From an uncultured virus (IMG/VR IMGVR_UViG_3300042691_048250) (lineage: Duplodnaviria > Heunggongvirae > Uroviricota > Caudoviricetes), in IMG/VR virus record IMGVR_UViG_3300042691_048250: a stretch of DNA of 64,000 bases. One strand, 5' to 3'. The position numbers were made by a program, and so were the translations under genes. Under the pieces are notes generated by a model, which was not told where the DNA came from, did no database searches, and saw only the letters and a program-made list of their open reading frames with translations. Of this stretch, positions 611-58,022 are shown piece by piece (position 1 is the first letter of the stretch; every line of letters starts with the position of its first letter).

Positions 611-2067
611 GACAAGCTCGTTTGATTATACGTGACGAAGTCAACGTCAAGATCGAAGGTCTGGAACTGGACGCCAGACGGGCATTGGTAAACAAATTCA
701 AATACGATGTACCTTACGCAAGATATCTGCCCGCAGTAAGATTGGGCCGCTGGGATGGCAAGGTTAGTTTCTTCCAACTGGGTGGATCCACTTACGTGAA
801 TCTATTACCCGAAATCATTCCTGTGTTAGAAGAATATAACTATGACATAGATCTTGATGATCAACGTGAATACCGTACCACGTTTGAGTTTACTCCGGTA
901 CAGGAAAATACCTTTGCCAACTATACCTGGCCCAAGGGCCATCCCCAGGCTGGCGAACCCGTGACCATGCGAGACTATCAAGTGGAAATTATCAACGAAT
1001 TCCTGGCCAATCCACAATGTATCCAAGAAGTAGCCACAGGGGCTGGAAAGACCGTGATGACCGCGGCACTAAGTCATGCCGTGACCCCGTATGGTCGTAG
1101 CATTGTCATTGTGCCCAACAAGAGCCTGGTCACACAGACCGAAAAAGATTACGTCAATCTTGGCCTGGATACCGGAGTGTTCTTTGGTGACAGGAAAGAA
1201 TTTGGTCGCCAGCACACTATCTGCACATGGCAGAGCCTCAATGTGTTGCTAAAGAATACCAAGAATCAATCAGCGGATATCACAATAAATGAATTCCTGG
1301 AAGATGTGGTATGCGTGATAGTGGACGAAGTACACATGGCCAAGGCCGATGCACTGAAAACCCTGCTCACAGGCGTGATGTCACAAGTGCCGATCCGCTG
1401 GGGTCTCACCGGGACCGTGCCAAAAGAGCAGTTTGAGTTTCAAGCCATACACGTAAGCCTGGGCCCTGTAGTATCAAGATTAGCCGCGGCAGAATTGCAG
1501 GATCGCGGTGTGCTGGCCCAGTGCCATGTGAACATTGTACAGTTGGTAGATCACGTGGAATATTCAAACTATCAGAGCGAACTTAAATACTTGTTGGAGG
1601 AATCCGGCAGGCTGGATACCATGGCCAATCTCATAGCCGAAGTCAACAAGACCGGCAATACCTTGGTCTTGGTAGATCGTATCACAGCCGGTCAGGAGTT
1701 GGTCGCGAGATTAGACAACGCAGTATTCATTTCCGGTGCAACCAAGGCCGGAGAAAGGCAAGATCATTATGACGAAGTGGCGGAGGCGACAGACAAGATC
1801 ATTGTCGCTACTTACGGTGTGGCTGCCGTTGGTATTAACATTCCCCGTATTTTTAATCTGGTGCTTGTTGAGCCTGGTAAAAGTTTTGTTAGAGTTATCC
1901 AGTCTATTGGTCGTGGGATCCGTAAAGCGGAGGATAAAGACTTCGTCCAAATATGGGATATTACGTCGACATGCCGCTTCGCGAAGAGGCATTTGACCAA
2001 ACGCAAAGCCTACTACAAAGAAGCACGATATCCGTTTACACACGAAAAACTCGAGTGGCAGGCTTGA
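607..2067 (+). CDS. uvsW: UvsW-like superfamily 2 DNA helicase
   Basis: Q motif MRDYQ, Walker A ATGAGKT, DEVH, GLTGT, QSIGRGIR. Confidence 0.9.
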   Translation: MRQARLIIRDEVNVKIEGLELDARRALVNKFKYDVPYARYLPAVRLGRWDGKVSFFQLGGSTYVNLLPEIIPVLEEYNYDIDLDDQREYRTTFEFTPVQENTFANYTWPKGHPQAGEPVTMRDYQVEIINEFLANPQCIQEVATGAGKTVMTAALSHAVTPYGRSIVIVPNKSLVTQTEKDYVNLGLDTGVFFGDRKEFGRQHTICTWQSLNVLLKNTKNQSADITINEFLEDVVCVIVDEVHMAKADALKTLLTGVMSQVPIRWGLTGTVPKEQFEFQAIHVSLGPVVSRLAAAELQDRGVLAQCHVNIVQLVDHVEYSNYQSELKYLLEESGRLDTMANLIAEVNKTGNTLVLVDRITAGQELVARLDNAVFISGATKAGERQDHYDEVAEATDKIIVATYGVAAVGINIPRIFNLVLVEPGKSFVRVIQSIGRGIRKAEDKDFVQIWDITSTCRFAKRHLTKRKAYYKEARYPFTHEKLEWQA

Positions 2068-2092
2068 CTTTGATCAAGCCATCATCTATAAT
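2064..2092 (+). promoter_or_regulatory. sigma70-type promoter, likely leaderless transcript
   Basis: TTGACT-17 nt-TATAAT, ATG at 2100 with no SD. Confidence 0.65.
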
Positions 2093-2099
2093 AAAAAAC

Positions 2100-2600
2100 A
2101 TGCGAATACTAACATTAGATAACTTGGCATACGATCTGGATACCTTGCCCGAAGAAGTGGAAGACATGAGATTTGCCATACTCGACAACTCAGATCCAGC
2201 TAACCCTGACTATCATTACATACCTTTGATATTTCTCGAAAGTTTCAGTGCTCCGGCACTGGTTTTACGGGTCGGAGAAAACACTATCAAGATGCCCGTA
2301 GATTGGCAGATACTGATAGGCGAACCTGATCTTGGCGATCTTGAAATGCTACCACTGACATCTATCAATGATCGCGGCTTCAAAGCATTCCAGTTCAATC
2401 CCTTGACTTCTTTCCGGCCCAGTTTTCCTGACATAGAAATCATAGACGTGTATCACGAAGTGATGTGGTATGCGCCCAAACTCAAGAACGGTCAGATGTT
2501 GGCAGTTCCGATCAGCAACGAGGACACGCCTGACTGTGTGTACTTCGTCAAAGACATATCTCGCAACTGTGAGATAGTAGATTACAACAAGGCCTGGTGA
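2100..2600 (+). CDS. Hypothetical protein, possible degenerate Hint-like fold
   Basis: ORF from ATG 2100; pattern resembles Hint blocks without catalytic residues. Confidence 0.6.
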   Translation: MRILTLDNLAYDLDTLPEEVEDMRFAILDNSDPANPDYHYIPLIFLESFSAPALVLRVGENTIKMPVDWQILIGEPDLGDLEMLPLTSINDRGFKAFQFNPLTSFRPSFPDIEIIDVYHEVMWYAPKLKNGQMLAVPISNEDTPDCVYFVKDISRNCEIVDYNKAW

Positions 2601-2601
2601 C

Positions 2602-2799
2602 ATGCAACAGTACAGCAAAAGTGGTCCAAAAATACAAGCACCCGAAAACAAGGTTGTCATAGGAGACGACACAGCCAGTCTCAAGTCGCAGATACAAGAA
2701 CAGAATCGCCTGATCGAAGAACTGCAAAAAGAAGTTCGCCGACTCAAACAAAAGTTGGATCGCCACGCTGATTATATCAACAGACAGAATCATGGATAA
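2602..2799 (+). CDS. Small coiled-coil protein
   Basis: Heptad-rich 65 aa ORF, tightly packed in operon. Confidence 0.6.
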   Translation: MQQYSKSGPKIQAPENKVVIGDDTASLKSQIQEQNRLIEELQKEVRRLKQKLDRHADYINRQNHG

Positions 2800-3232
2800 A
2801 CTCAGCATACACAATGAGATGGCACAGTTTGATCTCAAGAATCGTGACTTCTATGACGAACTCACTGATGAAGAACGCAAGAAATTTTCTAACTATCTCA
2901 TGATACGCTGGGGATCAGCAGTGCAAGGCAGCCGCGAACTGCAAGAATTTTATGTGATCGCTACCAACGAACGGTTGAACAAGCATTTTTTTACCGTGAA
3001 TCGAGAACCCAAACTGCAATGGCTCATGGCCACCACTGTGAGTCCAGGCCTGGGCACACAGCGACATCAGTGGATCGCCCCCAAGAAAAAAGATGGTGCC
3101 AACAACGAAGTCCGCAAGACCTTGATGCAACTTTACCCGGCCATGAAGATGTCTGATATTGATACTCTGGCCGCTCTCACTGACCGAAAAGAATTGAAAG
3201 AGCACATGCGTGAGCTCGGCGATCAAGACTGA
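2792..3232 (+). CDS. Clamp loader small subunit (T4 gp62-like)
   Basis: 'KKFSNYLMIRWGS...NE...HQWIAPKK' pattern, size and replication context. Confidence 0.6.
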   Translation: MDKLSIHNEMAQFDLKNRDFYDELTDEERKKFSNYLMIRWGSAVQGSRELQEFYVIATNERLNKHFFTVNREPKLQWLMATTVSPGLGTQRHQWIAPKKKDGANNEVRKTLMQLYPAMKMSDIDTLAALTDRKELKEHMRELGDQD

Positions 3233-3908
3233 ACCACAACACACTTGCCGTTACTGCGAGAAAACCTTCCGCAGGCCCGAAAGCCTGGCAGTGCATGTCT
3301 GCGAGCCCAAGCGCAGATACCAAGAACAACAGGAAGTCGGTGTGCAACTGGGACTACAGTGCTATCTCAAGTTCTATGAATCCACGCAGGGTTCGGCAAA
3401 GTTGAAGACCTTTGATGACTTTGCTCGCAGTCCCTATTATCGTGCATTCGTAAAATTTGGACGATACTGTGTAGACATCAAGGCCATAAATGTCGCCCGG
3501 TTCATTGACTGGCTGCTCAAGCACAACAAAAAAATTGATCACTGGTGCAGAGACTCTATCTATGGAGAATACATCACTGACTATGTTAGATCTGAATCTA
3601 CTGCTGACGCCCTGGCTCGTGCCATAGAAGAAGCCATGACCTGGGCTGAAGAAACTGGCAATCCAGATCGAGATTATCTGCGCTATGGTAACACCAATCG
3701 GGTGTGCTACGCCATCACCACGGGTAAGATATCGCCATGGGTGTTGTACAACTGTGGATCTGGCATGACTCTGCTGGAGAATCTATCTCAAGAGCAGATC
3801 GCCATGATCTGGCCCATGATAGACAGTGATTTTTGGCAGCGGAAGTTCCGCGACTACAGGGCCGACGCCGAGTATGCCAGAGAAATATTGACCAAGGCAG
3901 GATGGTGA
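3210..3908 (+). CDS. Hypothetical protein with N-terminal C2H2-like zinc finger
   Basis: CRYCEKTF...LAVHVC. Confidence 0.7.
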   Translation: MSSAIKTEPQHTCRYCEKTFRRPESLAVHVCEPKRRYQEQQEVGVQLGLQCYLKFYESTQGSAKLKTFDDFARSPYYRAFVKFGRYCVDIKAINVARFIDWLLKHNKKIDHWCRDSIYGEYITDYVRSESTADALARAIEEAMTWAEETGNPDRDYLRYGNTNRVCYAITTGKISPWVLYNCGSGMTLLENLSQEQIAMIWPMIDSDFWQRKFRDYRADAEYAREILTKAGW

Positions 3909-4474
3909 TGAGCGCAGATATCGACATAGACTTGCCAGACCGAAGCCGTGTGCTGTCATTGATACAGCATGTGCCAGCCAGGCAAGGCGATCGCCGACAC
4001 AATTCCGGAGTGTACATACAAAACATACCCAGAGATCCTGTGCTGGATTGTGCAGCCATAGACTATGAAACCGCAGAGCAACGCGGATATTTCAAGATCG
4101 ATCTGTTGAATCTTGGGGTGTATCAATTGATCCAAGATCAAGCGCACTATGACCGCATGCTGGCCCAGGAGCCAGATTGGGCCAAACTGTGGCAAGATTC
4201 TGATTGGGCCAAGTCCTTGATACACGTGGGCAACTATACTGATCTGCTGTCGGCCATGCGCCCAGACAGCATACCTCGCATGGCTGCTTTTATATCGATA
4301 ATACGTCCTGGCAAGGCACACCTGCAAGGGCACTCATGGGATCGTGTTTTTGAGTCAGTATGGGACGGTGACGACAGCCGAGGATATACATTCAAGAAAA
4401 GCCATGCAGTGAGCTATGCCCGACTGGTGGCCTTGCACATGAATCTAATCTACCCTGCGAACCAAAGTGATTGA
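3908..4474 (+). CDS. Minimal DNA polymerase III alpha (DnaE)-like protein, ~189 aa
   Basis: ADIDID, RHNSGVY, FKIDLLN, IRPG, FKKSHAVSYA in DnaE order; ATG overlaps upstream TGA. Confidence 0.75.
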   Translation: MSADIDIDLPDRSRVLSLIQHVPARQGDRRHNSGVYIQNIPRDPVLDCAAIDYETAEQRGYFKIDLLNLGVYQLIQDQAHYDRMLAQEPDWAKLWQDSDWAKSLIHVGNYTDLLSAMRPDSIPRMAAFISIIRPGKAHLQGHSWDRVFESVWDGDDSRGYTFKKSHAVSYARLVALHMNLIYPANQSD

Positions 4475-4822
4475 TTTCCGTTTACTTTTGCGCCGGCTGA
4501 TCTCGCTGAGACTGCACACAGGGCCATGTATGATTTCGAGATCTTTGTTGCTGAATGTGCGTATATAATCGCGGAAAACGTCCCATTCATTACGCAGGAA
4601 TATGTTGATAGGAATGCTGTGATTGCTTTCCCACCACCAGGTGCTGCCAAGGTCCAAGAAACGGCGTTTTAGCACAGGATCATGGATGTCACCAAAATCA
4701 TATAGACTGGTGATATCAGCATCGCGATTTTGTATGATGCCCACATATTCGTTGCCCGCATGGATGCACAAGGTGATGAAAGGGTACTTCTGGCTTAGTG
4801 TCACGAACAAGTTTTCACCCAT
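4445..4822 (-). CDS. Hypothetical protein
   Basis: 125 aa ORF; TATAAATA late promoter on minus strand at 4862-4869. Confidence 0.7.
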   Translation of the reverse strand: MGENLFVTLSQKYPFITLCIHAGNEYVGIIQNRDADITSLYDFGDIHDPVLKRRFLDLGSTWWWESNHSIPINIFLRNEWDVFRDYIRTFSNKDLEIIHGPVCSLSEISRRKSKRKSITLVRRVD

Positions 4823-4843
4823 AAATATCTGCGGAGATTTCCT

Positions 4844-5635
4844 ATGTATTCAACCACTGCCTATTTATATCAGCAGATACAGCAAGTTTTATTGATCGAC
4901 ATATCGGGTGTGGGTGCGACGTTTGACCGGAGGTGGAATCCTGTGTACGCAAAAAGTTTAAAATTAAATCTTGGAGTAGACAACGTGATCCTATTCCAGT
5001 TCCTTAATCAGGATCAGAAACCAGTGAATATCACTGGCGCTACTTTCACGTTTCGCATCATCAGCCAAGACGGTGAAGACTTGCTGTACAGCAAAGAACT
5101 GGTCAGCCTGAACAATGCCACTGGCCGAGCCAAGGTCACGATCACCCAAGCAGAGACTGACAATCTACAGGCACAACCAGCATCCTGGAGCATAGAGATC
5201 ACCTCAGGCGTGCTTAATCAAGCTGTGTTCACTGATGATTACTCTGGAGCACGCGGAGACATTGACATCGTGGACTCTGTGTTTCCTGCTTTCGTGGCCA
5301 GTTCGGCCTTGACTGTGCCCTCCCAGGCTCCAGACAGCAGTGTTTACTATACCAGCACTATCACCACCAATGGTACCAGGTTGACCACGTTCCAGTTTGA
5401 TACCGTGGACTATACTGGTGAAATCAGTGTGCAAGGCAGCGTGGATGCCACGGCACAGACCGTGATGTGGTATGATATCAACTTCCAAGATCTTGAAACC
5501 AGTAACACAGTATCTCATTTAGATTTTGTCACCAGTACCGCACGTCGTGCTATCAATGTGCAAGGATTCCATCCTTATTTGAGATTAGCATTACAGGTCA
5601 GCGACGGCAACGTAGCAGCCATAACTTATAGATGA
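4844..5635 (+). CDS. Putative virion structural protein
   Basis: T/S/V-rich beta protein; TAAATA at 4822 and GGAG SD. Confidence 0.6.
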   Translation: MYSTTAYLYQQIQQVLLIDISGVGATFDRRWNPVYAKSLKLNLGVDNVILFQFLNQDQKPVNITGATFTFRIISQDGEDLLYSKELVSLNNATGRAKVTITQAETDNLQAQPASWSIEITSGVLNQAVFTDDYSGARGDIDIVDSVFPAFVASSALTVPSQAPDSSVYYTSTITTNGTRLTTFQFDTVDYTGEISVQGSVDATAQTVMWYDINFQDLETSNTVSHLDFVTSTARRAINVQGFHPYLRLALQVSDGNVAAITYR

Positions 5636-6360
5636 AGTTTAATAAAATCGTAGGATTTGGAGATTCTTTCATGTGGGGCGACGAGTTATTGGACCCTGCT
5701 TTGATCGATCACCCCCACGCACATCCTGTGTTAGTAGAGAACACTGTGTACAGAGAATCTCAATGTTTTCTGGGGCAGTTGGGTCGGCATTATGGCGTGC
5801 CCACAGAGAATTTTGGTTTGCCCGGAGGTAGTTTACAAAGCACTATCTGGACCTATCTGTGGTGGGTCGAACACGAATCTGTGCCTTTGGATCAGTGTTT
5901 GGTTTTGGTCGCTCTTACTGATGCCAACCGCCACAGTTTTTATGAGGTAGATCATGTGTGCTACGCCAACGATCCCCCATGGAACCGTTTCGTTCACAGC
6001 GCATGGGTACATAGTGGCAAGGCCACCATTCAGCAAGCATGGGAGGACATGGTTAAAAAACACATGGCACTGACCGATTGCCCAGAATCTCATGATTTAA
6101 ATTACAGGCAGGCTGTGTTGTTTTTTCATGGACAAAGAGAAAATCATCGCGGATTGTTACAATTTAATACTCTGCAACCCGTGACCGTGATCAATAAATC
6201 CACTGTGTTATGGCCAGACCAATGTCTGCAAACCCAGTTCAAATATCTACCGCATCGACAACATCTGTTGGCACCCATGGGCCATCCAAACATCCAGGGT
6301 CATGAATGGATAGCATCAAGGTTGATTCCTGAAATAGATCGTGTTACAATGATTGAGTGA
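5632..6360 (+). CDS. SGNH/GDSL-hydrolase-like protein
   Basis: FGDSF block I, NFGLPGGS, C-terminal GHPNIQGH. Confidence 0.65.
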   Translation: MKFNKIVGFGDSFMWGDELLDPALIDHPHAHPVLVENTVYRESQCFLGQLGRHYGVPTENFGLPGGSLQSTIWTYLWWVEHESVPLDQCLVLVALTDANRHSFYEVDHVCYANDPPWNRFVHSAWVHSGKATIQQAWEDMVKKHMALTDCPESHDLNYRQAVLFFHGQRENHRGLLQFNTLQPVTVINKSTVLWPDQCLQTQFKYLPHRQHLLAPMGHPNIQGHEWIASRLIPEIDRVTMIE

Positions 6361-7346
6361 TTGACATACTCCCTTATCTTCCAACCAAACGCAAGAGTAC
6401 CGCGTCGGGATGGATATCATTCAATGCACCTTGTTGTGTTCACAACGGCGAATCTTCGGACCGCCGGCAACGTGGTGGGATCAAAGTCAATGATCAGGGC
6501 TGGAGTTTCCACTGTTTCAACTGTGGATTCACGGCCAGTTTTATCCAGGGCCGCAACTTGTCTTTCAAGGCCCGCAGATTTTTGCAATGGCTGAATGTAC
6601 CCAAGGAAGAGATCGAGCGTGTCAATCTTGAAAGCCTGCGACATCGCAGTGTGCAAGGTATCCTGGACGATCGGCAGAGGACTGCCAATACGGTACAAGG
6701 CATTGAATTTGAAGACCGAGAACTGCCCGATACCTTTGCACTGATAGATCAGCACATGCCAGTGCATTGGCAATACCTCAGAGATCGCTGTGTGCCGGAG
6801 AACTACCCCACGGGCATGATACATGGTCAGCCCGATGACAAGTTCAGCCGTCGGCAGGGTGTGATCATACCATTTACCTATGACGGGCGCATAGTAGGAC
6901 ATACCCAGAGATTCTTTGATGATCATAATCCACGATATATCCATGACATGCAACCAGGCTATGTGTTTGGTACAGATCTACAAGGCCCCAATTGGAAACA
7001 TGCGATCGTTGTCGAGGGCGTGTTTGACGCACTCAGCATCGCAGGGTTGGCTGTGTTGCATGCTGAAATCAACGATGCACAGGCCAGATTGATACGCAGC
7101 TTGGATCGCGAAGTCACTGTGGTTCCAGATCAGGACGAAGCCGGCATGAAACTGGTTGATCGTGCCGTAGAACTGGGCTGGGCAGTGAGCATGCCTGAGT
7201 GGCCATCGAACATCAAAGATGTCAATGATGCAGTAAAGTGCTTTGGCCAATTGGTGACCTTGATACATATATTCCAAGCCAGAGAAACCAGTAAAATCAA
7301 GATAGAACTAAGGAAGAAGCAACTTGTTAAAAGACTACGGAATTGA
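6357..7346 (+). CDS. DNA primase (T4 gp61-like)
   Basis: Zn ribbon (CC..H...HCFNCG), TOPRIM VEGVFDA and PDQD, KDVND. Confidence 0.9.
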   Translation: MIDILPYLPTKRKSTASGWISFNAPCCVHNGESSDRRQRGGIKVNDQGWSFHCFNCGFTASFIQGRNLSFKARRFLQWLNVPKEEIERVNLESLRHRSVQGILDDRQRTANTVQGIEFEDRELPDTFALIDQHMPVHWQYLRDRCVPENYPTGMIHGQPDDKFSRRQGVIIPFTYDGRIVGHTQRFFDDHNPRYIHDMQPGYVFGTDLQGPNWKHAIVVEGVFDALSIAGLAVLHAEINDAQARLIRSLDREVTVVPDQDEAGMKLVDRAVELGWAVSMPEWPSNIKDVNDAVKCFGQLVTLIHIFQARETSKIKIELRKKQLVKRLRN

Positions 7347-8730
7347 TGTCCAACGACTGTTCCTGGAGATGATGTTGCAGGATGCACAGAGTTACATCCG
7401 TGTGCAGAACATCTACAATCCAGAAAACTTTGATCGCAGCCTGCGTCCAGCAGCCGAGTTCATAAAAGAACACTGCGACAAGCACAAGACCATGCCGGAC
7501 CGTGCGCAGGTGTCGGCTACCACATCCACTCGTCTGGAACACATCCCTGATCTCACTGAAGGACACTTTGACTGGTTCTTGGAAGAGTTTGAAGGATTCA
7601 CACGCAGGCAAGAACTGGAACGTGCGATCTTGAAATCAGCGGACTTGCTGGAAAAAGGCAACTTTGATCCTGTGGAAAAACTGATCAAGGATGCAGTGCA
7701 GATATCCTTGACCAAGGACATGGGCACAGATTACTTTGATGATCCGCGTGCGAGATTGATGGCCTTGAAAAACAACAACGGCCAGAACAGCACAGGTTGG
7801 CCTGCCTTGGACAAGCTGTTGTATGGCGGATTCAATCGCGGCGAACTGCAGATCTTTGCGGGTGGATCGGGCTCGGGCAAGAGCCTGTTCATGCAGAACT
7901 TGGCAGTGAATTGGGTAGAGGCCGGACTTTCTGGAGTGTACATCACTTTGGAACTTTCCGAAGGTCTGTGTGCCATGCGTATCGATGGCATGCTCACCAA
8001 CACAGCACAAAAAGAGATCTTCCGAGACCTTGACACCGTAGAGATGAAGATCAAGATGATGGGCAAGAAGTCGGGCAAGATGCGTATCAAATACATGCCT
8101 GCACAGAGCACAGTGAACGACATCCGGGCGTATCTCAAAGAACTGCAGATACAGACCGGATTGAAGGCAGATTTCCTGTGTGTGGATTATTTGGATCTAC
8201 TCATGCCAGTGAGTGCCAAGGTATCACCCAATGACCTGTTTGTCAAAGACAAATATGTGTCGGAAGAACTGCGCAACCTGGCCAAAGAACTCAACATCTT
8301 ATTTGTCACAGCAAGCCAGTTGAATCGTGCGGCAGTGGAAGAAATTGAGTTTGACCATAGCCATATCTCAGGTGGTATTTCTAAGATCAATACTGCGGAC
8401 AACGTATTTGGTATCTTTACATCGAGAGCCATGCGTGAGCGTGGTCGCTATCAATTACAGTTGATGAAGACTCGTAGTTCCTCGGGTGTAGGACAGAAAG
8501 TGGAGCTGGAATTTGATATCGAAAGCCTGCGCATCCGAGATCTTGCGCAGGATGAAGGTTATCAAGAGTTCAAAAAACGTGCGCCATCGATCTATGAGTC
8601 GATCAAGGCCAAAAGTACCTTGACAGACGACGAACCCAATGCCACTGTTGCTGACGAGCCAGGAAAAATCACGGCAGAAGTACAGTCATCAAAACTTAAA
8701 AGCCTATTGAATCAAATCAAAAGTGTTTGA
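7324..8730 (+). CDS. Replicative DnaB-like helicase (T4 gp41-like)
   Basis: GGSGSGKS, ITLELSE, VDYLDL, TASQLNR. Confidence 0.92.
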   Translation: MLKDYGIDVQRLFLEMMLQDAQSYIRVQNIYNPENFDRSLRPAAEFIKEHCDKHKTMPDRAQVSATTSTRLEHIPDLTEGHFDWFLEEFEGFTRRQELERAILKSADLLEKGNFDPVEKLIKDAVQISLTKDMGTDYFDDPRARLMALKNNNGQNSTGWPALDKLLYGGFNRGELQIFAGGSGSGKSLFMQNLAVNWVEAGLSGVYITLELSEGLCAMRIDGMLTNTAQKEIFRDLDTVEMKIKMMGKKSGKMRIKYMPAQSTVNDIRAYLKELQIQTGLKADFLCVDYLDLLMPVSAKVSPNDLFVKDKYVSEELRNLAKELNILFVTASQLNRAAVEEIEFDHSHISGGISKINTADNVFGIFTSRAMRERGRYQLQLMKTRSSSGVGQKVELEFDIESLRIRDLAQDEGYQEFKKRAPSIYESIKAKSTLTDDEPNATVADEPGKITAEVQSSKLKSLLNQIKSV

Positions 8731-9553
8731 AGTCAAAGTCATAGTGTTTACCGGCCGATAGTTTTGAATCTATGTCCGTGATCCAATCAATTGTGATTGG
8801 AGACACAGGATATTCTGGTAAATGTTCATTGACCCAGGCAAGGTGTTGCAATGGACTTGGATGCATATCAACTGTGTTCCAAAGATTTGAAGATATCGTT
8901 CTGTCTTGCTTAATCATGTCACAAAAGTCATATAGTTCTTGTTTCACAAATGCATCAAGAGGCATGTTGCGATACTGTCCATCTAGAATTTGATCCAACG
9001 GGGGCCAACTTGCACCTGCCATCCTATCGTAAAGTTGCCGCGCAGATTTTAAACTCTGTGGATGTAAACGATATGGTTTTTGATTGGGCGTCATGGGTGC
9101 ATATTTGATACGGTCTAAGATTGGACCATAGAGTTTGTATGGCTCAGTATCGCCATCAAATTCCTGCCAATGCAACATTTTATAGTTGATCTTGAGGTAA
9201 TCTAGCATGTACTGTACAGATGCCATCCACGCAAATGACAACCATTGATAACCGACAGGACATGACAACGGTATATCTTTGCGAGATAGATCAAAATATT
9301 GATTCACAAAGTGAGACCATTCATTGATCTGATAGTAATCAATTCTAGCCAAACCCGACCAAAGTATGATCACGGTATCATCGGGCCGGAATTTATGAGT
9401 CAGATGGCATCGATTTATCGCGTTGAGAATATAATTATTGCCGGCTCCGGGACGACCCCAATTGTAAAATTCAGTGAAACTCCTGCCTATGATATCTGCC
9501 CAGGTAGGATAGTGATAAGAGGTGTGGCTGCAACCAAATGTGAATAGTCTCAT
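8717..9553 (-). CDS. SGNH-like hypothetical protein
   Basis: FGCSHT, NWGRPGAGN, DMHPSP. Confidence 0.6.
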   Translation of the reverse strand: MRLFTFGCSHTSYHYPTWADIIGRSFTEFYNWGRPGAGNNYILNAINRCHLTHKFRPDDTVIILWSGLARIDYYQINEWSHFVNQYFDLSRKDIPLSCPVGYQWLSFAWMASVQYMLDYLKINYKMLHWQEFDGDTEPYKLYGPILDRIKYAPMTPNQKPYRLHPQSLKSARQLYDRMAGASWPPLDQILDGQYRNMPLDAFVKQELYDFCDMIKQDRTISSNLWNTVDMHPSPLQHLAWVNEHLPEYPVSPITIDWITDIDSKLSAGKHYDFDFKHF

Positions 9554-11250
9554 TGATTTAGATACTCGTCAATTTTTATGCTTTTGACATTGGATTTTTG
9601 ACACATCAAAAACTGGCTACCGTCTCTGTTTTGACGTTCGCCTTGTCCTACTATCACAGAGCCTGAATCATACTTAATGGGCCGATCCACGATAAGGTCC
9701 ACATACTCTCCTTCGCCTACTCCCAGGGTGATGAAGTGAATATATTTTTGTCGATCTCTGCGGAATACCCGGCTGTTGGCCACGATACCAGCAAACTCAA
9801 ACTTATCCAAGTAGAGATTCCTTACTCCCATTCGCGGCAAGAAGCCCGGAGAATTCCAGCAGCCATGCTCCACAAATGACTCCACAGGATCTTCAGTGAT
9901 CCAGTTGTCAAATCCAAGATCGCGCAGGTCCCAGCCTGCTCGCTTGGCTTCGTTGCGATAGACCCAACGAGCATAACTTCCTTGGCAATGCTTGAGTGCG
10001 GCACGCCAGAACTCTCTGGGGTTGTGTGCTTTCTGCCAGGCCAGGGCCCAGATCAAGCGGCCAAGGTTCACAGCATGTGCGCGGCACAGGCCAAAACCTG
10101 ATAAACTCTGCATCTCTTGATAGATGGCGTGTCGATCAGGGTGGTCACCCAGCCGAGCCATGAACTCCATGACCTTTTCTTCGTTGCGCTTGGCAAAGGC
10201 CCGGCGATACATGTCGGCTTCGTAGGCATTTACAGAGATCAGTTTCATGATCTTTTCTATGGCATCGTCTTCGCATACTATGGCCGACTCTTGCACAGTT
10301 TTTTTGGTCCAGTCATGGAAGAACGAAGCCTTTTTACGACCTTCCACGGCCACGGGTCGTACCAAGGCCGTGGCAAACACACAGTCTTCTACAGACGTGG
10401 GCTTGATGGCTCGGAACAGTCGGCGCATGGCCGGGGATTCTCCCTGTGTCACTCCCAAGACATCCCCGCGCTGTAGCAGATCCGCTGTGAGATCATCTTC
10501 CTTGGGATATTCGTGTATCCGGCGGGCGGCATCAATCTCCATGAGTTGGCTGAGCCCACGATTGGCCAGGATGTCTACTTTGAGGTGCTCGAGATCCTCT
10601 ACTTCGTTTTTGTCCAGCAAGATGAGATTGTCATCGCGGAACAGGCTCTGCGGTAACTTGCGATCAAACACTATGACTCCACCGCAGTGCTTGCTCAGGC
10701 AACGTTTCTTGCCCATGAGTTTTTTCTCTATGCGGCGTGCTTCTTCCACATCCACGCCCAGTTTGGCATAGTCTATTTCCTTGGGCAAGCGTCCTCGAGC
10801 GCCCAGGCGCTTGGCTGCTTCGCGCCGGGCCGATTTTTCTTTGTACATCACATAGTTGCTGATGCGAGCAGTCTTGCCGGGCCAGGCATCAAAGATCCTT
10901 TGCATGGCCAACTCTTGTTGGTGGTGTGGCACATCGATGTCCACATCAGGCAGATCGTCTCGGAAGGGATTGAGGAATCGGGCCAGGGGTATGCGCCATT
11001 CTATGGGATCCACATCTGTTATGCCCATGAGATAGCACACCAGGCTGGATCCTGCGGATCCGCGTGTCATGTGTGGTATGTCTTTATTGAGATCTAGGAC
11101 CCTGCGTATCTTGAGGAAATAATCCGTGAATCTCTGGTTGATGATTATGCCAAATTCTTCTGCTAATCTTTCTTGGTAGTCCAGTGTGTCCGGACAGGAC
11201 CTGCGGAATTCTGCTAACAATTCCTCGATCTGCTGTAATTCTGTCGCCAT
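9550..11250 (-). CDS. dnaE: DnaE-like C-family DNA polymerase lacking the PHP domain
   Basis: RGSAGSSLVCYLMGITDVDP, PDVDID, KHCGG, KVDIL, GFGLCRAHA. Confidence 0.85.
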   Translation of the reverse strand: MATELQQIEELLAEFRRSCPDTLDYQERLAEEFGIIINQRFTDYFLKIRRVLDLNKDIPHMTRGSAGSSLVCYLMGITDVDPIEWRIPLARFLNPFRDDLPDVDIDVPHHQQELAMQRIFDAWPGKTARISNYVMYKEKSARREAAKRLGARGRLPKEIDYAKLGVDVEEARRIEKKLMGKKRCLSKHCGGVIVFDRKLPQSLFRDDNLILLDKNEVEDLEHLKVDILANRGLSQLMEIDAARRIHEYPKEDDLTADLLQRGDVLGVTQGESPAMRRLFRAIKPTSVEDCVFATALVRPVAVEGRKKASFFHDWTKKTVQESAIVCEDDAIEKIMKLISVNAYEADMYRRAFAKRNEEKVMEFMARLGDHPDRHAIYQEMQSLSGFGLCRAHAVNLGRLIWALAWQKAHNPREFWRAALKHCQGSYARWVYRNEAKRAGWDLRDLGFDNWITEDPVESFVEHGCWNSPGFLPRMGVRNLYLDKFEFAGIVANSRVFRRDRQKYIHFITLGVGEGEYVDLIVDRPIKYDSGSVIVGQGERQNRDGSQFLMCQKSNVKSIKIDEYLNQ

Positions 11251-13964: not shown

Positions 13965-13984
13965 GTTTGGCCGTAAATATCACC

Positions 13985-14608
13985 ATGCAACCCATAGCAT
14001 TGTGGCCCGTGATGTTCTACGATTTCCAATGGTCTGATCATGACCATTGGGTCCAAGATCTCACCAAACTCTGTTATGAATTAGAGGCCAAAAAACACGT
14101 CAGCGGCATAGCAACGCAGGCCAAACGCGGTCTCTACGAAAGCGGATTTGATTTTGTGCAGGATGACTCGCCCGCGGTTCAGGCCTTTGCTACCTGGGTT
14201 CGGCAGTGTTTTTCTCAAGCCATCACGCATGCCAATCAAGCATTTTGGCCCACGGGTTTGAATTTGGATGTTGACATACACGAATCCTGGTGCCATATCA
14301 CCCGAGACGGTGGTTACCATGACTTACATGCCCATCCAGACAGTTCGTGGTCTGCTATCTATTATCTTGACATTGGCGACATGAAGGCTGGGGATAAAAA
14401 TGGGGTCAATAGATTCTACAACCCTAATCATTGCATGTATGTAGATCCCGGCACGGCCTGGATGCAGAACAGCACCAGCACTGATTTCATCGCAGAACCC
14501 GGCATGATGGTGATATTCCCCAGCTGGGTACCACATTCAGCACTGACTTATCGTGGCACACAAGATCGCTTGGTCATTGCACTGAACTGCAAAGTCAGAG
14601 AGGTCTGA
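13985..14608 (+). CDS. 2OG-Fe(II) oxygenase (TIGR02466-like)
   Basis: YHDLHAHP, WSAIYY, IFPSWVPH, RLVIALN. Confidence 0.8.
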   Translation: MQPIALWPVMFYDFQWSDHDHWVQDLTKLCYELEAKKHVSGIATQAKRGLYESGFDFVQDDSPAVQAFATWVRQCFSQAITHANQAFWPTGLNLDVDIHESWCHITRDGGYHDLHAHPDSSWSAIYYLDIGDMKAGDKNGVNRFYNPNHCMYVDPGTAWMQNSTSTDFIAEPGMMVIFPSWVPHSALTYRGTQDRLVIALNCKVREV

Positions 14609-16985: not shown

Positions 16986-17582
16986 ATGCAGATCGAAATA
17001 AAACATCACCAACTGCCCAATCTTGGCTTCATAATGTTCGACATCCCTCCGGTGGCTCTGTCCTATCTTGACAAGGTGTGCGCAGACATCCAAGCCAACC
17101 CTGATCAATACAAACCCTGGAACGATCATCTCGTGGGGCATATTCAAGATCAATACAGTTTTGATCCATCACCCGAGTTCCGTGAATTCATTCAGCAAGT
17201 GGCTGCTCAATATACTTCGGCCAGCACCGTGACACGGCCAAAACCCTTTGAGTTAGACAGCGTTTGGGCCAACTTCCAAAAGCGGCATGAATACAATCCA
17301 TCTCATGATCATGATGGTGATCTCAGTTTCGTGATCTGGGTGCAGATACCCTACGATCTCAAAGAAGAATTGGCGGTGTATCCAGATGCTCGCGGACAGA
17401 GGCACAGTTGTTTCGAATTCAAATACACCACGATCTTGGGCAAGGTCTGTACCTATACCTTGCCAGTAGATCAAGACTGGCGTGGCAAGATGATCATGTT
17501 TCCTGGCAAACTGGTACATCAGGTAAATCCTTTTACCACAACGGATGGCATCAGGATATCAGTCAGTGGCAATCTAATATAA
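16986..17582 (+). CDS. 2OG-Fe(II) oxygenase
   Basis: WANFQ..HEYNPSHDH, FPGKLVHQV, RISVSGN. Confidence 0.8.
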   Translation: MQIEIKHHQLPNLGFIMFDIPPVALSYLDKVCADIQANPDQYKPWNDHLVGHIQDQYSFDPSPEFREFIQQVAAQYTSASTVTRPKPFELDSVWANFQKRHEYNPSHDHDGDLSFVIWVQIPYDLKEELAVYPDARGQRHSCFEFKYTTILGKVCTYTLPVDQDWRGKMIMFPGKLVHQVNPFTTTDGIRISVSGNLI

Positions 17583-17606: not shown

Positions 17607-17999
17607 ATGGCTTATAGTGAAAAAGTATTAGATCACTACGAGCATCCCCGCAACGTAGGATCATTTGACAAGGCAGACACGCAAGTGGGCACCGGCATGG
17701 TCGGTGCTCCTGCCTGCGGTGATGTGATGAAATTGCAAATAAAGGTAGATGATGATACAGGTATTATTACAGACGCTCGCTTTAAAACGTATGGCTGCGG
17801 CTCGGCGATCGCAAGCTCAAGCCTTGTCACCGAATGGGTCAAAGGAAAAACCCTCGACCAAGCCGCAACAATCCGAAACACTCAAATCGCCCAAGAGTTA
17901 GCACTTCCACCGGTCAAGATACACTGTTCGATCTTGGCCGAAGATGCTATTAAAGCCGCCATAGAAGATTATCGTAAAAAACATGCTGTCACTGACTGA
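17607..17999 (+). CDS. iscU: Fe-S cluster scaffold IscU
   Basis: YSEKVLDHY, GAPACGDVM, KTYGCGSAIASSS, LPPVKIHCSILAEDA. Confidence 0.97.
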   Translation: MAYSEKVLDHYEHPRNVGSFDKADTQVGTGMVGAPACGDVMKLQIKVDDDTGIITDARFKTYGCGSAIASSSLVTEWVKGKTLDQAATIRNTQIAQELALPPVKIHCSILAEDAIKAAIEDYRKKHAVTD

Positions 18000-52059: not shown

Positions 52060-52635
52060 ATGACCATAGAAAAAGATTCACAAGTCTACGATTCTAATAC
52101 ACAGGCCCTGAACGATCATGGGATCTATGTACTCATGGACGATATCGATCCCGAAAGCATTAAGCCCGTGATCGAGTGGATCCTGCATGAAAATCATGTC
52201 AAAAAGAAAAAACACAAAGAACTCCTTCTCATGGTCTGCTCCAATGGGGGCAACATTTCCGAAGCATTTGCTCTGATCGATGTCATGCGCAGTAGCAAAA
52301 TCCCAGTCAAGACTGTGGGCCTGGGATGTATTGCCAGTTGTGGCTTACTGATATTCTTAGCCGGCGCTCAGGGGCGCAGGGTGCTCACTCCTAACACTTC
52401 AGTGCTGAGCCATCAGTTCTCATGGGATGTTGGGGGCAAGGCGCATGAACTGTTTGCCACTGTGAAAGAGTTTGACTTGACCCAGAAACGCATGATCGAG
52501 CACTATCGGCGTAGCACTGGCTTGGATGATGACACTATCCGCCGGGTCCTGTTGCCGCCACAAGACGTTTATCTTGATGCCGAAGAAGCCATGAAATACA
52601 AGATCTGCGATGCCATCGCAGAACTGCCTGCTTAA
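52060..52635 (+). CDS. Divergent ClpP-family protease
   Basis: CSNGG, GCIASCG (Ser), SHQ (His), DVYLDAEEA. Confidence 0.85.
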   Translation: MTIEKDSQVYDSNTQALNDHGIYVLMDDIDPESIKPVIEWILHENHVKKKKHKELLLMVCSNGGNISEAFALIDVMRSSKIPVKTVGLGCIASCGLLIFLAGAQGRRVLTPNTSVLSHQFSWDVGGKAHELFATVKEFDLTQKRMIEHYRRSTGLDDDTIRRVLLPPQDVYLDAEEAMKYKICDAIAELPA

Positions 52636-55134: not shown

Positions 55135-56123
55135 TAATACGCACCGTAGATCGTGGTTGGGGCCCTGAATGGCCTATCAAACAGTATGAACAACACATAC
55201 TGGATCAATATCTGCAACCAGTAAGCAATGACAGCGTGCCTACAGTAGTCATCAATAGCACCTGGTATGACGACGAAACACATCAACAAACCATGCAATG
55301 GCTACGCCAAAGTTCCGCGGAGAGACTGATCTTGGTCAGTATGATAGACAGCGCAATCGCCCGCAAAGAAAAATTCCAAGACCTCGGGCTTCCTGTGTAT
55401 GAATTAGGATCTTATCCAGGATCGCATGAGATAGTTTTTTGGGCACTGGTGTTGGATCGTTGGTCGCCGAGCATAGATGACTCTGAATTGATGTGCACCG
55501 ATAGATTTGCCCATGCTTTCATGTGCTTGAATAGGAAGCCGCATCGCCATAGATCAATCTTGTACAAACAATTACAGGCCAAAGGCCTTGTGTGCTCCAA
55601 TTTAGTCACTATGGGAAGTGACGGTGATCGCGCCGAGAGATCATTGCCCGAAGATGTGACGCATCAAGAACTATCACCTAACAGCGCAGTGCGCAATCAT
55701 GGCATTGTCAATGACAATGTGTCATTGGGTTTGATGGCCAATTGGCAGAGCCATTTTCTCAACGTGGTCACAGAAACAGTATTTGATGTCAGCCGGCAGT
55801 GGTTTGTCAGCGAGAAGATTTTCAAGCCTATTATTGGCTTACGACCTTTCTTGGTGTATAGCATGGATGGAGCACAGGCCTGGCTCGACCATCATGGGTT
55901 CCAATCCTATGCAGATGATTTCCGGGATATCACGGATCTCACACCCAGAGATCCCACACAGATGGCCGATTTTTTGGCAGTAGTGGATGCACAGGGCCCG
56001 GCATACTGGAAGGAAAAATATCTTGACCTACTGCCCAAAATCCTTTACAATAGACAAGTGTTCCACGACCTCGTGGCCCAGACAAAGACCAAAATCAAAC
56101 AAGGATTCTCATGCCAAACTTAG
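55131..56123 (+). CDS. Glycosyltransferase-like protein
   Basis: [15 protein letters not shown]...[14 protein letters not shown]. Confidence 0.55.
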
Positions 56124-56701
56124 TGCCTATCGTTTTAGAAAACACCTCCAAAGGTGAGCGCAGTTATGATATCTACAGTCGCTTGCTCCGAGACAGGATC
56201 ATCATGCTAGACAACGAAGTCACCCAGCATTCAGCCAGCCTGGTAGTGGCACAGATGTTGTTTCTTGAAGCCGAAGATCCTGACAAAGATATCCTGTTGT
56301 ATATCAATTCTCCCGGCGGCAGTGTCACAGCCGGCATGAGCATCTACGATACCATGCAGTTCGTCAAATGCGATGTATCAACCATAGTATTAGGGCAAGC
56401 AGCCAGCATGGGCAGTTTACTGGCCGCAGCCGGTGCATCCGGCAAAAGATACATCCTGCCCAACGCCAGACACATGATACATCAGCCTCTGGGCGGCGCC
56501 TCAGGCCAAGCCACCGATGTAGAGATACAGGCCCGAGAACTGTTGCGCTGGAAAGAAGTCCTGACCAATGTTTATGTCAAGCACACTGGTCGCACGTTTG
56601 ATGTTTTGCGTGCTGACATGGAGCGCGATAACTTCATGACTGCTGAACAGTCTGTGACCTATGGCTTGGCCGACAAGGTGCTGGACCGACGTGACGCCTA
56701 A
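56111..56701 (+). CDS. clpP: ATP-dependent Clp protease proteolytic subunit
   Basis: [33 protein letters not shown]. Confidence 0.97.
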
Positions 56702-58022
56702 CGCTAAGATATTCTGCAATTCTCCTTGGTATGAACTGCAGATCTACTGGGATGGGTCTTTAGGGTTTTGTTGCCAGGAAGCCCACAAAATCTATCCTGA
56801 GTCCGAGTCTGCCAAATACAACATTCGTAACATGTCTATCTCAGAATGGATGGATAGTGAGCCTATGAGACAGGCACGGTTGAGCATGTTTGGTAATGAA
56901 AAAAATAGTTTTTGTACAAGATGCTACAACGAAGAAGACCACAGCGGCACCAGCAGGCGTAATCGAAGCAATCAGAAATCTGTGATATTCCAACGCAACT
57001 TCCAAGAAAGTTATGATCAAGGACCCGGACGCAACAAGTTTGAAAGTTCACGTGTGCGCCAGGGACATCATGCTGATTTGCCCGTAGATCTTCACATAGA
57101 TCTTGGCAACTATTGCAATCTCACTTGCAAAATGTGCAATCCTCGAGCCAGCTCCAGCATCGCTGTTCAGCATGTCCGTTGGGGCATGACTGATGCACAG
57201 CAATATGTAGGTACTGATTGGACACGAGACACCGACTTATGGCAGCGCACCTTGCGAGATCTGGCCAACATACCGCGTTTGAAAAACGTACATTTCATGG
57301 GAGGCGAAACTTTGTTGACTCCTCGATTTGAAGAATTTTTAGATTTTATGATTGCGCAAAATCGACTTGATATCAATATCAGTTTCGTTACCAATGGCAC
57401 ACATTTCATTGACAGGATCATGCCCAAGCTGGCTCGCTTCCGGGGCGTGAACATCGAAGTCAGCATTGAAAGTCTGACCCAACACAATGCCTATCAAAGA
57501 CAGGGCACCAACACAGACCAAGTCATGATGCATGTCAAACGCTACCTGGATCTCACCAATGAACATATGAGCCTCACCGTTAGACCTGCTATCAGCGCAT
57601 TGACCATAGGTACATATCACACTTTGTTAGCCTGGTGTTTGCAAAACAATGTCGTGGTAAAATCCTTGCTATGTACCCAGCCTCAACATCTTAATGTTGT
57701 GATCTTGCCAGATGCTGTAAAAAAACACTACAGCCAAAGATATCATGATTTCTTGGCGCGGTATGACCTTGAATCTTTGCCGGTGACAACTGATTACAAT
57801 GCCAGCGATCGCAATGAAATTAAAAAAATCATCAAGAATCAGGTATTGCAGTGCCTATCTGTTCTGGCCACACCACGTCCAGAAGATGCCGACGCATGCC
57901 TTGGACAAATGGTGTATTGGTGCCAACGCTGGGATAGGGTACATGGACTCGATGCCCGAACGTTATACCCAGAGTTGGAAGAGGTGTTTAATCTATATCA
58001 CTATGACCCGTTACCGCAGTAG
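56691..58022 (+). CDS. Radical SAM protein with extra Cys (SPASM/twitch-like) domain
   Basis: CNSPW...CC...[20 protein letters not shown]. Confidence 0.9.

Follow-up and report, generated by a model that had tools for sequence, protein, structure and literature searches.

A gene very probably encoding the C-terminal unit of a two-gene minimal DNA polymerase III alpha in an uncultured Caudoviricetes virus

A short gene that begins at the DxD motif

The stretch of viral DNA analysed here (64,000 nucleotides of the IMG/VR record IMGVR_UViG_3300042691_048250, hereafter the window) carries at positions 3908-4474 of the + strand an open frame of 188 residues, followed by a stop codon. The frame itself, the protein family phrog_11778, profile comparisons and a predicted structure point to the C-terminal, Mg2+- and template-binding unit of a split minimal DNA polymerase III (Pol III) alpha, and we refer to its product as the C unit. 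An earlier note, made from the letters of this DNA, had described a miniature DnaE with a clean frame, a start at the DxD motif and the HxxG, KxD, RPG and KSHA motifs in order, all of which is borne out. The N-terminus reads M-S-A-D-I-D-I-D, with the start three residues ahead of DxD, and the motifs follow in the order known from DnaE, i.e., A3-D4-I-D6-I-D8, H31-N-S-G34, K63-I-D65, R133-P134-G135 and K164-S165-H166-A167. The initiating ATG (3908-3910) shares one base with the TGA (3906-3908) of the preceding gene at 3210-3908, the sequence at this stop/start junction being ...GGATGGTGATGAGC..., and a start at the in-frame ATG at 3902 instead would lengthen the protein by two residues (190 aa). 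A palm of the Pol-beta type requires a glycine-serine loop for the triphosphate, and in DnaE that loop lies upstream of DxD. The C unit has neither this triphosphate-binding loop (GRGS) nor the first half of the palm and is therefore not a stand-alone enzyme; thus, the statement that it "keeps all catalytic motifs" is right for the motifs listed above and overstated for nucleotide binding, a gap of which the earlier note was half aware.

The frame is a real, conserved gene. Over its whole length the product matches phrog_11778, labelled "DNA polymerase" in PHROGs (E 3.3e-52), and within a set of 5.8 billion proteins 5932 of the 5967 word-sharing candidates score E <= 1e-3 against it, these relatives being counted as clusters at 90% identity. 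The best 120 of the 5932 homologs are 183-204 aa long, and 348 representatives at 50% identity also score E <= 1e-3. Searches with tblastn returned 96 phage records (95 at >= 80% query coverage), all of them jumbo phages of the RaK2, PA5oct, Atu_ph07, XacN1 and CBB kind, and among the 40 matches listed the members from cultured phages are 35-41% identical to the C unit. An alignment of 78 diverse, full-length members, which share 30-60% identity with the query, shows no variation at D4, D6, K63, D65 and P134, and conservation of >= 90% at D8, H31, G34, R133, K163 and H166. The C unit is also under strong purifying selection: in 80 genes, i.e., that of the window and 79 from IMG/VR contigs, its length stays within 184-192 aa, and the ratio of nonsynonymous to synonymous substitution rates (dN/dS, Nei-Gojobori) has a median of 0.078 and a range of 0.04-0.19 over those 568 pairs, out of 3160, whose dS lies between 0.1 and 1.5. 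No stop codons and no lost aspartates are seen in close relatives, and the variable lengths and decayed aspartates envisaged by the earlier note were not found in these sets.

At the DNA level, a search of the phage collection with positions 3000-5000 of the window gave no match. Near-identical DNA to the same positions (>= 0.5 of the sampled words) occurs in 10 public DNA runs labelled as fungus-associated, soil and freshwater metagenomes, two of which may stem from the sample of the record itself, and no RNA run is among the matching runs listed.

The relationship to DnaE emerges from both profile and predicted fold. Against the Protein Data Bank (PDB), a profile of the 78 members finds nine DnaE chains (E 3.1e-6 to 6.6e-5) and beyond them just two rows, at E 0.76-0.77, and it places K63 and D65 on K553 and D555 of E. 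coli DnaE, the RPG motif on 639-641 and FKKSHA on 756-761. The AlphaFold2 model of the protein alone, built with the family alignment, has a mean predicted local distance difference test score (pLDDT) of 94.4 and a predicted template modelling score (pTM) of 0.87; in this prediction, which the earlier note had proposed as a check, a DnaE/PolC-type fold is recovered, with Z up to 9.5. The best 15 Foldseek rows are all of the Pol III alpha/PolC type (C-family), and so are the best 13 rows of VIA-align (Z 9.5-6.2, 172-185 residues aligned, root-mean-square deviation 3.1-4.5 A), the next row being unrelated at Z 3.5. Residues 1-186 of the model span E. coli DnaE 399-780 or Thermus 460-837, with Z 9.5 to 3e0d_A (183 residues aligned) and Z 7.9 to 2hnh. 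The model keeps the four palm strands bearing the aspartates and a helical finger core with short helices, and where the thumb would be (residues 9-30) there is only a short helix and a strand. As modelled, some 380 DnaE residues are thus compressed to 188, and both sequence and predicted fold make the C unit a homolog of DnaE residues from about 399 to 780.

Judged by these alignments, the C unit bears the three putative metal-binding aspartates (D4, D6, D65), the adjacent K63 and a trimmed finger core (R133-P-G, K164-S-H166). With the bacterial enzymes (E. coli 2HNH and 4JOM; Thermus aquaticus 2HPI and 3E0D; Mycobacterium tuberculosis DnaE1 5LEW) it shares the palm strands, D401/D403/D555, K553, RPG at 639-641 and KSH at 758-760. 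Unlike them, it lacks the PHP domain, the first palm half with GRGS, the thumb, the clamp-binding motif, the OB fold and the tau-binding end, and it is a separate polypeptide equivalent to about 399-780 only. The deletion of PHP, thumb, most of the fingers, HhH and OB that had been noticed at the outset fits this structural mapping.

The N-terminal unit in related genomes

The suggestion that the gene might encode "one subunit of a split polymerase" proved right: in related genomes, a gene far away from that of the C unit encodes the missing GVGRGSS-bearing part. A separate N unit of about 165-185 aa, ending in "GVGRGSS...EFL[KR]", is present in 10 of 10 related large records (the phages Atu_ph07, PAC2 and RaK2, and the genomes G002, G003 and G007-G011), tens of kb away from the C unit, of which each record also has one. 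Positions ~18-98 of PF07733 match one stand-alone frame per record (175-199 aa, or an open reading frame (ORF) of 169-185 aa). All three reference phages have such an N unit (177 aa in Atu_ph07, 169 aa in PAC2 and 172 aa in RaK2), ending ...GVGRGS....L(D/N)..EFL(K/E) and separated from the C unit by 34-183 kb. The most informative relative is G002 (337 kb, terminal repeats, 100% complete), whose C unit is 73% identical to that of the window and lies near 17.5 kb, with a 185-aa N unit at 117 kb. The N unit of G003 is found at 172.5 kb, and G007-G011 give one N-unit match each (frames of 175-199 aa) and one C-unit match each, far apart. Across 39 N units the segment G151-V-G-R-G-S-S157 is invariant. 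In G002, G003, PAC2, RaK2 and Atu_ph07 the gene after that of the N unit is a small, GroES-like one.

The two units fit end to end on DnaE. On E. coli DnaE, the N-unit profile covers 320-392 and ends at FERFL, and the C-unit model begins at 399, i.e., about six residues are missing between the halves. A complete 566-aa DnaE encoded elsewhere in the window (9550-11250, - strand, discussed below) serves as an internal ruler, on which the N-unit hidden Markov model (HMM) falls on open-frame residues 20-110 and the C-unit HMM on residues 117-139 and 202-321. Both profiles thus map consecutively onto this compact phage DnaE of the phrog_405 type, which belongs to the same superfamily.

In cyanobacteria, DnaE is specified by two dnaE genes, and the two products are joined by protein trans-splicing through a split intein. 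The phage system resembles this arrangement in that a DnaE-type polymerase would be made from two distant genes. A split-intein reading was nevertheless rejected, as neither half has sequence to spare at its ends: the halves abut with about six residues missing, and therefore no room is left for intein pieces. Unlike the cyanobacterial products, the two phage units would therefore have to work as a non-covalent pair.

Both halves also occur naturally in a single chain. The 375-aa protein P0177 reads ...GVGRGSS...KEFIK, then a 9-residue linker, then ADFDID..., the linker being about as long as DnaE is at that point. The nearest relatives of its N half (66% identical) are stand-alone 179-aa proteins, and the fused form is found once among the 150 C-unit representatives listed. 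We regard this fusion as suggestive of N- and C-unit pairing and not as conclusive.

Neighbouring genes and co-occurring polymerases

The C-unit gene sits in a block of replication genes that opens with a UvsW-type superfamily 2 helicase (607-2067, +), recognised by ResIII (4.4e-19), Helicase_C (1.9e-8), a weak UvsW_N match and phrog_16 (E 1.5e-72). The genes between uvsW and the gene preceding the C unit (1953-3232) match only PHROGs of unknown function. Downstream, a 125-aa convergent gene (4445-4822, -; phrog_11637, E 4.9e-31, a PHROG of unknown function) overlaps the last 30 bases of the C-unit gene, 3' end to 3' end, an arrangement annotated also in Atu_ph07, PAC2 and RaK2. Farther downstream in the block are a Toprim primase (6357-7346, +; Toprim_2 1.1e-6) and a DnaB-like helicase (7324-8730, +; DnaB_C 4.7e-19), which together match phrog_47 and phrog_19. 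The order uvsW, zinc-finger gene, C unit, primase-DnaB is common to the window, Atu_ph07, PAC2 and RaK2. Of the coupled uvsW/clamp-loader operon described earlier, UvsW does lie upstream and the stop and start codons overlap by one base, but none of the genes next to that of the C unit was recognised as a clamp loader.

The preceding gene (3210-3908, +; phrog_11058, E 6.6e-57) encodes a conserved protein of 232 aa, in which an N-terminal zinc finger (C-x2-C...H-x-C) precedes a helical body. Its zinc finger scores 20.1 bits against Pfam zf-C2H2, below the cut-off of 25.2; C13, C16, H29 and C31 are invariant, and a GK/R-I/L-SPW motif is also present. Homologs in RaK2, CBB-like phages, PAC2 and Atu_ph07 are 22-36% identical. 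The AlphaFold2 model (pLDDT 87.7) shows a small zinc finger followed by about 14 helices, for which Foldseek returns nothing at E <= 0.001 and a wide VIA search nothing at Z >= 5 (best Z 4.8); a protein-atlas search finds viral hypothetical clusters only. Residues 130-231 align with the C-domain of the T4 gp59 helicase-assembly protein (1c1k_A) at Z 4.1 over 94 residues, a value within the noise that we mention as a lead only, and the Pfam family T4_Gp59_C is found in 0 of 5 related genomes, a result of little weight given that no control genome scored above the cut-off either.

Such a neighbour could be thought to supply the missing part of the polymerase, as the earlier note had proposed, or to be an obligate third subunit. 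Its gene overlaps that of the C unit by one base and precedes it in 140 of the 142 loci with >= 750 bases of upstream flank, and it holds the same place in PAC2, RaK2 and Atu_ph07 (23-36% identity). However, the protein has neither similarity to DnaE nor a GRGS motif, which refutes it as the missing half; its "CGSG" is replaced in homologs by ASSS, VPPE or VG-, its all-helical model has no match above Z 4.8, and the real GRGS unit is encoded elsewhere. Adjacency is loose as well: in the 140 loci, 41 pairs overlap or lie within 6 bases, 56 are separated by a 339-373-base insert and 43 by 639-2796 bases (some contigs being counted twice in these figures, as the two locus sets overlap). Translational coupling of the two genes is thus common and not fixed, and we consider the zinc-finger protein a conserved neighbour, very unlikely to be an integral part of the polymerase in either sense. 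A reading of its C-terminus, "NCGSG...DFWQRKFRDYR", as the GRGS...FERFLNPER segment of DnaE was rejected, the motif being unconserved and DnaE similarity lacking, and no programmed frameshift joining 3210-3908 to 3908-4474 need be invoked, since in many relatives 340-2800 bases separate the two genes. The ~340-373-base insert in the IMG/VR loci fits one small ORF, as in the case of RaK2 ORF123, and the polymorphic spacer suggests that small genes have inserted here repeatedly.

For a T4-like replisome a family B polymerase (PolB) had been expected. It is indeed present in all five relatives that are >= 95% complete (G002, G007, G008, G009 and G011); it was not found in G003 (61% complete), and a PHROGs scan covering 60 of the 89 ORFs listed for the window found none either.

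The window does encode a separate, unsplit compact DnaE of 566 aa (9550-11250, -), with a GRGS-type loop, DVDID, palm and fingers. Unlike the C unit, it has the entire palm and fingers in a single chain and scores above Pfam thresholds (PF07733 3.7e-40, 138.6 bits over model positions 20-260 of 260; finger domain PF17657 3.6e-14). It lies 5 kb from the C unit and does not belong to the split enzyme. The interval 8717-11250 (-), which it shares with a 278-aa gene matching no known family, is flanked by the DnaB helicase gene and the small gene of phrog_11854; in RaK2 these two flanking genes are 11 bases apart with nothing between them. Complete counterparts (566-583 aa including that of the window) exist in G001 and G002, the one in G002 being 77 kb from its C unit; none was found in Atu_ph07, PAC2, RaK2, G003 or G007-G011, and in G003 and G007-G011 PF07733 finds the N unit only. 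Its best phage match is an uncultured 484-kb phage (36% identity). The 566-aa protein looks like a lineage-specific acquisition, and the lineage would have up to three polymerase systems, i.e., family B, complete compact DnaE and split mini-DnaE.

Given a complete DnaE so close by, the C unit might be taken for its decaying remnant, or else for a stand-alone mini-enzyme, an idea with which the confident fold predicted for the C unit alone would agree. Yet the GRGS loop and the first palm half are absent, for which reason the "minimal nucleotidyltransferase" acting alone, as first suggested, is not supported; a dN/dS of 0.078, a length held at 184-192 aa and 5932 clusters of the same architecture speak against decay, and the family is present in eight large records without a complete DnaE. 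Moreover, no closer relationship of the C unit to the 566-aa protein than to cellular DnaE could be detected; C unit and 566-aa protein share scattered motif-level matches only (best segment E 0.036). We therefore give hardly any probability to either version.

Several other genes of the window deserve a brief mention. The N-termini of the products of 5632-6360 (+; ...GFGDSF...) and 8717-9553 (-; ...FGCSHT...), which have no Pfam match at E <= 0.1 and no PHROG match at E <= 0.01, resemble the first block of SGNH/GDSL hydrolases. Further along, ribonucleotide reductase, ATP-dependent ligase and prohead-protease-like genes are found. Two paralogous 2OG-Fe(II) oxygenase genes, the second with a NifU-like Fe-S assembly gene beside it, and two prohead-protease-like genes about 3.5 kb apart lie at 13967-14608, 16986-17582, 17607-17999, 52060-52635 and 56111-56701 (+), the second prohead-protease-like gene being followed by that of a radical-SAM protein (56661-58022).

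A two-gene polymerase and its place among known systems

A minimal Pol III alpha of this kind has been described from sequence in the group 2.2 jumbo phages by Iyer, Anantharaman, Krishnan, Burroughs and Aravind (2021, Viruses 13:63, PMC7824862). The sections of that paper on the split enzyme give it an N-terminal NTP-binding unit and a C-terminal Mg2+/template-binding unit encoded by distant genes, in phages that also have PolB; they read it as a DNA polymerase, propose it as a model of the ancestral state, and state that other Pol III domains are absent from the phages having the split version. The C unit of the window agrees with the C-terminal unit described there (PMC7824862) in being a stand-alone protein of ~190 aa that begins at DxD and has the Mg2+-binding aspartates and a template-binding stub, and in its setting with uvsW, primase and DnaB; in RaK2/Atu_ph07-type phages PolB and a distant N-unit gene accompany the family as well. 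Unlike the phages of that description (PMC7824862), the window, G001 and G002 also encode a complete DnaE of 566-583 aa, and a complete DnaE beside the split one contradicts the generalisation as worded in those sections. PHROGs and some GenBank records already label family members as DNA polymerase. The split mini Pol III is thus an already published kind of enzyme, and the gene of the window is a further example of it and not a discovery.

Based on the evidence above, we consider it very probable that 3908-4474 encodes the C-terminal unit of a two-gene minimal DNA Pol III alpha of the RaK2/PA5oct/Atu_ph07-like (group 2.2) jumbo phages. We postulate that the N and C units would associate non-covalently and rebuild one nucleotidyltransferase active site, in which the N unit would hold the triphosphate of the incoming deoxynucleoside triphosphate (dNTP), and the C unit the two Mg2+ ions together with part of the fingers that contact template and dNTP. 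The pair would then add deoxynucleoside monophosphates to a primer in a template-directed manner. It would most likely be a distributive, accessory polymerase, serving in primer extension, gap filling or repair beside the family B replicase, distributive because thumb, PHP, clamp-binding, OB, tau-binding and proofreading-associated parts are all missing.

A number of observations weigh against this interpretation. In the open-access literature no measured enzymatic activity was found for any family member, only the computational description of 2021. The Pfam search of the C unit gives no family at E <= 0.1 (PF07733 is not reached), phmmer with the single sequence finds no PDB chain, and the best Foldseek E value is just 1.8e-3. 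The fusion P0177 is a singleton on a 2415-base contig, and no fused form was found among 391 longer candidates. With a complete 566-aa DnaE in the same lineage, it is less obvious that the split enzyme would be needed strictly for replication. The partner carrying the RGS motif, found in all ten related large records, is not within the 64 kb of the window: tblastn with three N units gives at best a 19-residue chance match (E 0.009), and the N-unit HMM finds no N unit in any of the six frames. The fragments G004-G006 (50-59 kb) likewise have a C unit without an N unit, as fragments should. By analogy with its relatives, the phage of the window presumably has an N unit, which would then have to lie outside the window.

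The paired units could alternatively be a nucleotidyltransferase that is not a templated DNA polymerase, engaged in untemplated addition, in primer extension or capping, or in making a nucleotide product for phage-host conflict. In favour of this, the protein is cut down to a Pol-beta-type core and a finger stub, with 188 residues over E. coli 399-780, bulk replication is already covered by PolB in relatives and by the complete DnaE in the window, and a bench demonstration was not found in the literature. However, R133, K164 and H166 of the finger stub are DnaE-specific and >= 90% conserved or conservatively replaced, the significant relatives are all C-family DNA polymerases, the gene lies between uvsW and the primase-helicase in every genome examined, and the sections of PMC7824862 on the enzyme read it as a DNA polymerase. 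Such a non-templated role therefore appears quite unlikely to us. A more specialised proposal, which we think unlikely as well, is that of a dedicated primer-handling nucleotidyltransferase, not a spare replicase, that would act with the zinc-finger protein (as a gp59-like loader or adaptor) and the primase-helicase, e.g., in an RNA-primer takeover like that of eukaryotic Pol alpha, and with three polymerase systems coexisting.

If, as we favour, the C unit is one half of a two-gene Pol III alpha, the window adds nothing fundamental on whether the two halves bind or polymerise, although P0177 may offer a possible single-chain construct. What is added to the literature is the coexisting complete DnaE, which contradicts the published generalisation and is the one point where the window itself extends it, together with the natural fused form and the quantified selection and synteny. 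The C-unit family is very common among environmental jumbo phages (5932 clusters), and no smaller form of the bacterial replicative polymerase core is known to us than the split mini Pol III to which it belongs.

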